The notes under the pieces: generated by a model
Told to the model about the DNA's origin: nothing
Databases searched by the model: none
Seen by the model: only the letters and a program-made list of their open reading frames with translations
Made by a program: the position numbers and the translations under genes
Virus genome (UHGV): UHGV-1701501
Length of the DNA stretch: 17,293 nucleotides
From: a virus
Direction: 5' to 3' (one strand)
Part shown: positions 1 to 1,598 of the stretch, piece by piece
Layout of the letters: every line of letters starts with the position of its first letter
How positions within the stretch are numbered: position 1 is the first letter of the stretch

Positions 1-680
1 AACTGCTCCGCATCCACCTGCAGCCCCACAATGGCCGTGTTCGGGTAGCACTGTTTCACATCGATGATTTCGGTGTATGACGACCACAGCGTCTTATTCT
101 GCAGCTGGTCCGTGGTGCTGTCCGCCGTCTCCCTGACCATCCGGATGTTAAAGGGCCGGGGAGGCAGATTATCCAGAATCACCGAGGCCAGGAACTGTGA
201 GGTGGTCTTGCCGTTAATGGTGACATCCTTTTCCGTCATCCATTTACCACCACGCTCAAGCTGAATCAGCAGGCGGACAGACGTCGGGTTACGGTCACCC
301 TTTGAGGTGGTCTCCACCAGTGACTGCACCCCGAAGGTAACCCGCAGGCGGTCAATGTTCGCGGACGTAATGGTGCGCGTCACCGGTTTTGCCTTCGTCA
401 CTTCCACGCCCAGTCCGGTTTCAGCTCCGGAGGACTCAAAGCCTTCCGGTGGTGTCTGCTCCTGCTCCCCGGCACGCCAGACCGCGGTCACACCGTGTAT
501 CACGGGATTACCGTCCGTGTCCGTCAGCGGGGTTTTGTTCACCAGGATACTCTGCAGTCCCTTCACCGGACCTTCTATCGGTCCCTCACCAATCGCATCA
601 ATCACACTCATCATCTGCGTGGATTTGAGATTGTCCTTCGCCTCGCGAGGTGTGTGCGCCTTGCCGCCACCTTTGCCCAT
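1..680 (-). CDS. J: Tail tip / host specificity protein J, N-terminal part (3' end lies beyond window start)
   Basis: Minus-strand ATG at 680..678 preceded by AAGGGTGAGACA; my translation begins MGKGGGKAHTPREAKDNLKSTQMMSVIDAIGEGPIEGP..., which closely matches my recollection of the lambda gpJ N-terminus; open to position 1. Not in the ORF track because it is truncated. Confidence 0.85.
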   Translation of the reverse strand, partial: MGKGGGKAHTPREAKDNLKSTQMMSVIDAIGEGPIEGPVKGLQSILVNKTPLTDTDGNPVIHGVTAVWRAGEQEQTPPEGFESSGAETGLGVEVTKAKPVTRTITSANIDRLRVTFGVQSLVETTSKGDRNPTSVRLLIQLERGGKWMTEKDVTINGKTTSQFLASVILDNLPPRPFNIRMVRETADSTTDQLQNKTLWSSYTEIIDVKQCYPNTAIVGLQVDAEQ

Positions 681-710
681 TGTCTCACCCTTTACTGTGA
701 TAACTGTTAC

Positions 711-745
711 GCACAAAAACAACAGGCATCCCTGAGGATGCCTGT
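711..745 (-). terminator. Intrinsic-terminator-like hairpin plus T-tract on the minus strand, about 30 nt upstream of the J start
   Basis: Perfect 9-bp stem CAGGCATCC/GGATGCCTG (724..745) with 4-nt loop, followed on the minus strand by TTGTTTTTGTG. Confidence 0.45.
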
Positions 746-782
746 ATCATCACTGAATAAAACTTCTGAATATCTTCACATT

Positions 783-810
783 TTCACAAACTGACTGTGG
801 CGCGTATAAT
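783..810 (+). promoter_or_regulatory. Sigma70-like promoter on the plus strand (-35 TTCACA, 16-bp spacer, -10 TATAAT)
   Basis: TTCACA at 783..788 and consensus TATAAT at 805..810 in an AT-rich intergenic insert; orientation opposite to the flanking I and J genes. Confidence 0.45.
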
Positions 811-816
811 TTCTCT

Positions 817-918
817 GCGTTAATTTTTTTGTCGTGACATAAGAATAATTCCTTACACTTAATCTTCGTAACTCTCCCGCAGTTCCTGTCCGTGAGCACT
901 GCGGGATTTTTTCGCTTT
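817..918 (+). ncRNA. Candidate small non-coding RNA (moron) between I and J, about 100 nt, bounded by its own promoter and terminator
   Basis: Promoter at 783..810 and intrinsic terminator at 875..918 on the same strand, with no ATG-initiated ORF with a ribosome-binding site between them. Confidence 0.3.
875..918 (+). terminator. Intrinsic terminator on the plus strand
   Basis: 8-bp stem CCCGCAGT (875..882) / ACTGCGGG (897..904) followed by ATTTTTTCGCTTTT (905..918). Confidence 0.55.
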
Positions 919-1598
919 TATGCCTGCCGCCCGATAACCACGACCTTTCCGCCCCCGCCTTCATCACGGGTACTGATGTCCTGGGATATACGGCGGGAGC
1001 CAACCAGCATTTCCCCGTAAGGCACCGGCATCGGGTTACCCTGGGCAATCATGTTGTCCAGTGACGAAAAATACGTGTTCTGTCTGCCGTTATCCGTTGC
1101 GCGGTAATCCGGTGTTTTTGCCTTCGGGGCCAGCATCTGGGCCACACCGCCCAGAATCATACTGGCACCCAGTGAAAACAGCATCGTGGTGGCAGAAAAA
1201 CCACCGGCACTCAGGGCTGTACCCCATAACGCCATCGAGCCTCCGGCAGTGAAGAAAGAGCCCACGATGGCTGCCGCCCCCAGCACAATCTGCAGTCCAC
1301 CCTTTCCGGCCCCGGCCAGTCGCGGCACAATGTGGATGACCGTTCCCTCACCCAGCTGTTCGTGAAGACGGGCGTACACCGCCTCCGGTGCCGTGTCATC
1401 ACCGGCAATACGTATCTGGTACCAGCCTTCGTTCATCTGACGGCGAAATCCGGGCACCTGTAACGACAGCGCCCGGATGGCTTCCGCTGCCGTGTTCACA
1501 TACAGGCTGAGGCGGCGGCCAAATCGTTGCAAATCCCCGTGAAGGCAGATGCGTGCCAGTGGCGGTGACGCCAGACAGAATGCGTTCGTCGTTGCCAT
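918..1598 (-). CDS. I: Tail assembly protein I (lambda gpI-like)
   Basis: 226-aa ORF; MATTNAFCLASPPLARICLHGDLQRFGRRL... and C-terminal NTYFSSLDNMIAQGN...YGEM.VGSR match my recollection of lambda gpI. Confidence 0.9.
   Translation of the reverse strand: MATTNAFCLASPPLARICLHGDLQRFGRRLSLYVNTAAEAIRALSLQVPGFRRQMNEGWYQIRIAGDDTAPEAVYARLHEQLGEGTVIHIVPRLAGAGKGGLQIVLGAAAIVGSFFTAGGSMALWGTALSAGGFSATTMLFSLGASMILGGVAQMLAPKAKTPDYRATDNGRQNTYFSSLDNMIAQGNPMPVPYGEMLVGSRRISQDISTRDEGGGGKVVVIGRQA

Follow-up and report, generated by a model that had tools for sequence, protein, structure and literature searches.

The window analyzed here, a 17,293-nt stretch of DNA from UHGV virus genome UHGV-1701501, carries two neighboring phage tail genes on its minus strand. 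The tail assembly gene I (918–1598, minus strand, taken from the list of open reading frames) encodes a Lambda_tail_I protein (Pfam, E = 6.5e-16), and the tail tip gene J (1–680, minus strand) is represented by its 5′ part, which starts at the ATG at 680–678 and continues beyond the window. The J translation (3–680, minus strand) matches FNIII-A_GpJ of the tip attachment protein (Pfam, E = 1.1e-41), and its start aligns with the annotated gpJ starts of E2348/69, O26 11368 and Sakai. The long open reading frames around the spacer between the two genes all lie on the minus strand. This spacer (681–917) measures 237 bp and is AT-rich, as an earlier note on this DNA had described: in 100-nt windows, the GC content is 0.32–0.40 across 701–900, as compared with 0.53–0.68 in the flanking genes. 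The same note described I and J of phage lambda as abutting, which is not the case, the two genes being 60 nt apart (end of I at 15444, first base of J at 15505).

Directly ahead of J, positions 681–710 of the minus strand form its leader and ribosome-binding region, with AAGGGUGAG upstream of the AUG as read from the sequence, and this segment is conserved jointly with the J start in loci having the same J type. About 30 nt ahead of the J start, a terminator scan identified a hairpin on the tail-operon strand (711–745, minus strand) at the place where a hairpin with a T-tract had been noticed before: its stem, which measures 10 bp (745–722), is followed by UGUUUUUGUG, and it folds with −20 kcal/mol (z = −3.4). 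One compensatory pair change (U:A to C:G) is seen in this hairpin when the window is compared with the E2348/69 and Sakai copies. The lambda junction (15445–15504; L131, 846–905) has a strong sense-strand hairpin as well, AAACCGCCUGCGGGCGGUUU; after it come UUUUGUCAUUU and then the ribosome-binding site of J. The lambda and window hairpins are non-homologous and have the same layout and position, which suggests that the pre-J hairpin is a conserved intercistronic element. Because lambda carries such an analogous hairpin without the small RNA (sRNA) gene described below, the hairpin at 711–745 belongs to the tail operon and not to the insert; we regard it as terminator-like and ancestral to the I–J junction. 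It has no U-run on the plus strand and so works only in the direction of the tail operon, where it could be a terminator that is read through by Q-modified polymerase or an element for mRNA end formation or stability.

A predicted transcription unit opposed to the tail operon

On the plus strand of the spacer, the near-consensus promoter announced in the earlier note was found at 783–810. It is a predicted sigma-70 promoter with TTCACA as the −35 element (783–788), a 16-nt spacer and TATAAT as the −10 element (805–810), and it matches the consensus at 11 of 12 positions. No other site of the 17.3-kb window, on either strand, reaches at least 11/12, and dinucleotide shuffles of the window hold a mean of 0.09 such sites. 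At a threshold of at least 10/12, a single further site appears, the next best in the window: TTAACA-16-TATCAT at 9112–9139 (plus strand), antisense to structural genes. The AT-rich region immediately upstream of the spacer promoter (746–782, plus strand) is highly conserved among alleles and is possibly an UP-like element. A 25-mer from this promoter-upstream region, TTCTGAATATCTTCACATTTTCACA, matched at least 120 viral contigs. The exact 25-nt string also occurs in short contigs assigned to Asaia platycodi JCM 25414 (L003, 546 bp) and Streptomyces flavalbus CGMCC 4.7400 (L005, 3408 bp), the latter with a full PasB-like gene (see below); these matches most likely reflect contamination of the assemblies with E. 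coli or phage DNA.

Downstream of the promoter, within the 875–918 segment in which an intrinsic terminator had been proposed, we confirmed a terminator at 875–912 (plus strand) with a 9-bp stem (875–883 paired with 898–906), a 14-nt loop and six U residues (907–912). With a start at about 817, placed from the position of the −10 element, the predicted primary transcript spans 817–912 and is 96 nt long. The earlier note saw no credible open reading frame between promoter and terminator, and we agree: no AUG was found within 817–912, and reading from its GUG and UUG codons leads to a stop after two codons, with no longer reading frame. These features, together with indels among alleles that are not multiples of three, speak against a transcript that encodes a very small protein, a reading to which we assign next to no probability and which the sequence effectively excludes.

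Two elements precede the terminator in the predicted RNA. A motif search identified an A-R-N repeat, AAGAAUAAU, at 841–849 (plus strand), which is a candidate Hfq distal-face site according to the ARN rule (PMC4104026). It is followed by an unpaired core, UCCUUACACUUAAUCUUCGUAAC, at 850–872 (plus strand), conserved across 55 distinct RNAs of the family described below and a candidate seed. The core contains UCCUUA, complementary to UAAGGA.

The predicted RNA is a relative of PasB from enteropathogenic E. coli

The earlier note left this RNA without a name. Full-length alignment and a covariance model now allow it to be assigned as a homologue of PasB and of EcOnc22, EcOnc23 and EcOnc24, and we describe 817–912 (plus strand) as the window-type allele of this sRNA family. 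PasB (pathogenicity-associated sRNA B) is an 83-nt sRNA of prophage PP6 in EPEC O127:H6 E2348/69 (NC_011601.1, 1466343–1466261, minus strand; Table S6 of PMC8550237; Pearl Mizrahi et al., 2021). It was validated by northern blot, was strongly reduced without Hfq and took part in 37 RIL-seq interactions (PMC8550237). Its log2 change was −6.8 and −2.4 in two differential-expression sheets of Table S2 (PMC8550237), which we take to be comparisons of an hfq deletion with the wild type, a reading that fits the stated Hfq-dependent stability. In E2348/69, two plus-strand genes flank this position, the tail assembly gene with its end at 1466255 and gpJ with its start at 1466496; PasB, located between them on the opposite strand, therefore sits in the I–J spacer, antisense to the tail operon.

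Window positions 661–940 align end to end with the I–J locus of E2348/69. PasB occupies the same place as the window RNA, directly after the I stop and antisense to the tail operon, and has the same −35 element, spacing, −10 element, terminator stem and U-tail as well as a similar length. Both RNAs follow a common layout in which an A-rich ARN run, whose E2348/69 counterpart is AGUAACAAAAACAAC, leads to a conserved unpaired core and then to the terminator; the PasB seed has been placed directly upstream of the terminator (Zhu, Shabalina and Storz 2026 preprint). The window promoter has the same hexamers and spacing as that of the expressed PasB gene and differs from it at two spacer positions. 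The published 3′ end of PasB falls on window position 912, the end of the U-run, while the published 5′ end, which was derived from read coverage (PMC8550237), corresponds to about position 831 and would give an RNA of 82 nt. When reverse-complemented, the probe used on the PasB northern blot closely matches the window terminator region, and the terminator hairpin of the PasB/EcOnc22–24 family (CCCGCAG...CUGCGGG followed by a U-run) is present in the window.

The window RNA differs from PasB in its 5′ third and in the terminator loop. The promoter region is more conserved than the RNA body: 64 of 71 positions are identical between 746–816 and the PasB promoter region of E2348/69, as against 63 of 91 aligned positions (~69%) in the body, where the longest exact run common to the two RNAs is 16 nt. 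This divergence has practical consequences. Searching the window with the 83-nt PasB query, blastn gave no match at a word size of 28 and only a 24-nt terminator match at a word size of 11. A recent survey of bacterial genomes used a word size of 28 and a coverage above 75% and described PasB variants as differing by few nucleotides (Zhu, Shabalina and Storz 2026 preprint); since blastn fails at this word size, the survey would miss the window-type allele. Likewise, with only 63 of 91 positions identical in the RNA body, PasB targets are not transferable to the window allele. The same preprint reports no target motif for PasB.

We also built a covariance model from 20 alleles, leaving out the window type; they represent E2348/69 PasB with its relatives, the type found in Sakai, and three additional types. 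This model matched 817–912 (plus strand) along its entire length (model positions 1–95 of 95) with 69 bits and E = 6e-12, and gave no other significant match within the window.

Correspondence with EcOnc22, EcOnc23 and EcOnc24 of O157 Sakai

EcOnc22 (Sp15), EcOnc23 (Sp14) and EcOnc24 (Sp11) are homologous Hfq-CRAC peaks of O157 Sakai (Table S2 of PMC4104026; Tree et al., 2014). EcOnc22 is an RNA of ~85 nt on northern blots that is destabilized in an hfq deletion (PMC4104026), and its targets were given as unknown in a 2021 review. We located the I–J spacers of the three prophages in NC_002695.2 at 2902691–2902930 (Sp15), 2676622–2676861 (Sp14) and 2166672–2166911 (Sp11), and in each of them the tail genes occupy the minus strand while the peak is on the plus strand. 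All three align with the window spacer over its whole length.

The published EcOnc coordinates refer to an older version of the genome, so that the shift between versions had to be deduced. The older chromosome presumably measures 5,498,450 bp, which differs by 128 bp from the 5,498,578-bp record. Measured with the AgvB1 and AsxR sequences printed in PMC4104026, the shift is about +136 to +143. When a shift of +128 to +140 is applied, all three EcOnc peaks fall inside the predicted RNA; in Sp15, for instance, the predicted RNA spans 2902836–2902926 and the shifted peak ~2902842–2902914. The Sakai allele has a weaker promoter than the window, without the second TTCACA and with AATAAT as the −10 element, and its 5′ region is shorter and different. 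We infer from coordinates, by way of this deduced shift, and from alignment that PasB and EcOnc22–24 are equivalent. Neither Table S6 of PMC8550237 nor the 2026 preprint gives an EHEC homologue of PasB or a link to EcOnc22–24.

On the strength of these comparisons, the window I–J spacer very probably holds a divergent and distinct allele of the PasB/EcOnc22/23/24 prophage sRNA, as a complete, independently transcribed gene opposed to the tail operon. This locus has already been detected experimentally twice; the window allele is new, unannotated and common, and a literature search with strings from it found no paper. PasB from EPEC, EcOnc22–24 from EHEC and the window allele would then represent one locus with several divergent alleles.

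The relatives also bear on another account, in which the spacer is a control region of the tail operon only, serving to initiate J translation and to provide an intercistronic terminator, and the plus-strand promoter and terminator are incidental, with no functional RNA made from this allele. Promoter-like hexamers do arise readily in AT-rich DNA, and a sense-strand hairpin with a T-tract ahead of J occurs in lambda too. When the AT-rich spacer was shuffled alone, however, a promoter of at least 11/12 was obtained in only 0.65% of the shuffles, and the one observed is correctly spaced from a strong terminator. The promoter is moreover better conserved than the body of the RNA, transcripts bound by Hfq come from homologous loci of two pathotypes, and the lambda junction makes do with just 60 nt. 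We consider an incidental promoter and terminator very unlikely.

Other identities were considered and set aside. The anti-sRNAs AgvB and AsxR (Rfam families RF02702 and RF02703, as cited in Zhu, Shabalina and Storz 2026 preprint), like other lambdoid prophage sRNAs of the PR′ moron site, resemble what is proposed for the window RNA in being short Hfq-binding RNAs that are borne by prophages, end in an intrinsic terminator and are expressed in lysogens, and they resemble the I–J family in joining variable 5′ parts to conserved 3′ parts. In contrast, they lie downstream of Q/PR′ and not in the tail operon, measure 51–60 nt and have no sequence similarity to the window RNA. AgvB, AsxR and EcOnc03 have in common a conserved 3′ region of ~42 nt (UAUCUCAUGC..UUGCCCGAACCCAYUCGGGC) at the PR′ moron site (PMC4104026), and this region is absent from the window RNA; location and sequence rule out an AgvB/AsxR identity. 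EcOnc54 (Sp6) was rejected as a further copy, as the regulator/antirepressor insert that houses it separates tail genes L and K, not I and J. A search of Rfam 15 gave nothing relevant with the whole window at gathering thresholds or with positions 600–1000 at E values up to 10, and the I–J sRNA family appears to be absent from this database.

Anatomy and prevalence of the I–J sRNA family

Two scans of viral contigs, one anchored on the promoter and the other on the 3′ half of the RNA, yielded 67 distinct alleles of the family. In 62 of the 67, a −10-like hexamer is retained whose distance from the conserved GCGUUA start is constant (TATAAT in 31, AATAAT in 19, TATCAT in 7 and others in 5); like the 64 of 71 identical positions in the promoter region, this points to a promoter under constraint. 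Folding the 55 distinct RNAs with RNAalifold gave the terminator stem as the sole consensus structure, the remainder being an unpaired succession of a U-run, A-R-N triplets and a core that ends in AUCUU. This AUCUU (862–866 in the window) is invariant across the family alleles; it was imposed by the second scan and is invariant in the promoter-anchored scan too. Covariation support among the 55 RNAs is nil because the terminator hardly varies, in part since the second search pattern fixed its 3′ arm. The 5′ segments, the core or seed variants and the terminator loops occur in all combinations, which argues for recombination inside the sRNA gene. Such divergent alleles at one locus offer a natural series for studying how seed changes rewire targets.

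The position of the sRNA directly after I is fixed in every context examined, even where the type of J has changed. The most common context among viral contigs (L020, 7758–8100) has an I–J spacer of 343 nt and a different, longer J (1230 aa). There, the sRNA unit still adjoins the I stop, and ~185 nt more separate its promoter from J; this extra segment holds a hairpin, AAACCCCGGTATC..GATACCGGGGTTT. The idea of a universal pre-J hairpin based on this contig was rejected, as ~100 nt more lie between the L020 hairpin and J. Two viral contigs contain two different PasB-like alleles each, a few hundred bases apart (L151, 4419–4466 and 4644–4692; L159, 323–368 and 995–1042), which would mean either tandem sRNA genes or a rearranged junction.

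Among 5426 complete E. coli genomes, 827 have the window-type RNA with its promoter (~15%; query 764–917, at least 80% covered), and 925 records have the E2348/69-type RNA at an identity of at least 95%. The spacers of strains such as O26:H11 11368 and O103:H2 12009 are 96.6% identical to that of the window. Over its full length, the whole window is most closely related to Stx1a- and Stx2c-converting phages, at 96–97% identity. Among the matches listed for window-derived queries, none has an annotated feature under the match, and when the E2348/69 PasB region served as query, the sole listed feature was the adjoining tail assembly gene, which the last bases of the query overlap. Many E. coli prophages, Stx1a and Stx2c phages among them, carry this widespread regulatory RNA gene in their tail operon without annotation. 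No new principle is involved, prophage-encoded Hfq-dependent sRNAs and sRNA morons being established.

Predicted mode of action

The present analysis shows the gene anatomy, homology, synteny and pattern of conservation. Expression, size, Hfq dependence and many partners have been published for other alleles, those of E2348/69 and Sakai; for the window allele, we infer its activity, the start at 817, the Hfq contacts and the seed at 850–872. Host RNA polymerase with sigma-70 would start about 7 nt after TATAAT, near 817, and transcription would end at the hairpin and U-run of 875–912, giving an RNA of ~96 nt that is possibly trimmed to ~82 nt. With a promoter of its own, the unit is independent of the late transcript driven by Q, and the sRNA should therefore be made in the lysogen. 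On our analysis, it is most likely a trans-acting, Hfq-dependent base-pairing RNA. Hfq would be contacted on its proximal face by the terminator hairpin with the U-tail and on its distal face by the AAGAAUAAU run, leaving the unstructured, conserved segment at 850–872 to pair with host or phage mRNAs, where its UCCUUA may recognize sequences that resemble ribosome-binding sites (Shine-Dalgarno-like, UAAGGA).

The arrangement of the locus also allows for an sRNA that acts mainly in cis, either by pairing with the late I–J mRNA and thereby causing cleavage or altered J expression, or in that the abundant late transcript mops up the sRNA upon prophage induction. Being antisense to the tail operon, the predicted RNA is perfectly complementary to the intercistronic part of the late I–J mRNA, and a mere 6 nt separate its 3′ end from the stop codon of I (920–918), in a position that holds across contexts. 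Neither a coding sequence nor a ribosome-binding site is overlapped by the RNA, however, and the J start lies ~130 nt away, past a separate hairpin. PasB moreover has 37 partners in trans by RIL-seq, and lambda and many relatives assemble tails without the sRNA. Weighing these points, we hold a mainly cis-acting role to be quite improbable and favor a trans-acting RNA.

The perfect complementarity to the late tail mRNA implies that prophage induction could titrate the sRNA. One may go further and picture the I–J sRNA not as a single gene but as a family of modular cassettes that recombine, in which the window type has a regulon unlike that of PasB and serves as a switch titrated upon induction. 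We put this forward as a speculative proposal that is rather unlikely to hold in full; if it were true, titration by late mRNA would couple the regulation of host genes to the lysogenic or lytic state.

A moron at the I–J junction

The earlier note proposed that a moron between I and J specifies an autonomously expressed plus-strand RNA of ~100 nt, and the loci of related prophages support this. The 60-nt lambda spacer (15445–15504) is without the sRNA unit, and compared with lambda, the window has ~170 extra bases between the minus-strand hairpin and the I stop, which comprise the promoter, the RNA and the terminator. Because the lambda spacer has the sense-strand hairpin only, the sRNA unit is a moron-like insert. 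The earlier note had suggested a check of presence or absence in relatives: of 279 phage records with a match to the window, only 149 match the spacer too, and lambda is devoid of the unit. With its own promoter and terminator and an atypical composition between conserved genes, the antisense sRNA unit is a moron in the sense of Juhala et al. (2000; cited in PMC4104026). Protein morons such as sodC, found in the I–J gap of Sakai Sp4, have the same insert character, whereas the cargo in the window is a non-coding RNA.

In some prophages, sodC (Cu/Zn superoxide dismutase) occupies the I–J gap on the strand opposed to the tail operon, with a window-type sRNA body directly downstream of it, as at L132 1350–1800 and in Sakai Sp4 (NC_002695.2, 1202486–1203338; L193, 10487–11339). 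In this form, the TTCACA/TATAAT promoter is replaced, the junction reads CTCTG[C>A]GTTAATG, and the RNA body lies ~70 nt beyond the sodC terminator hairpin. O157:H7 genomes match window positions 812–917 only, which corresponds to the sodC-linked form. The RNA body behind sodC could be an sRNA derived from the sodC 3′ end or a promoterless relic, and this promoterless copy in O157 indicates that the RNA body can persist without the promoter at 783–810.
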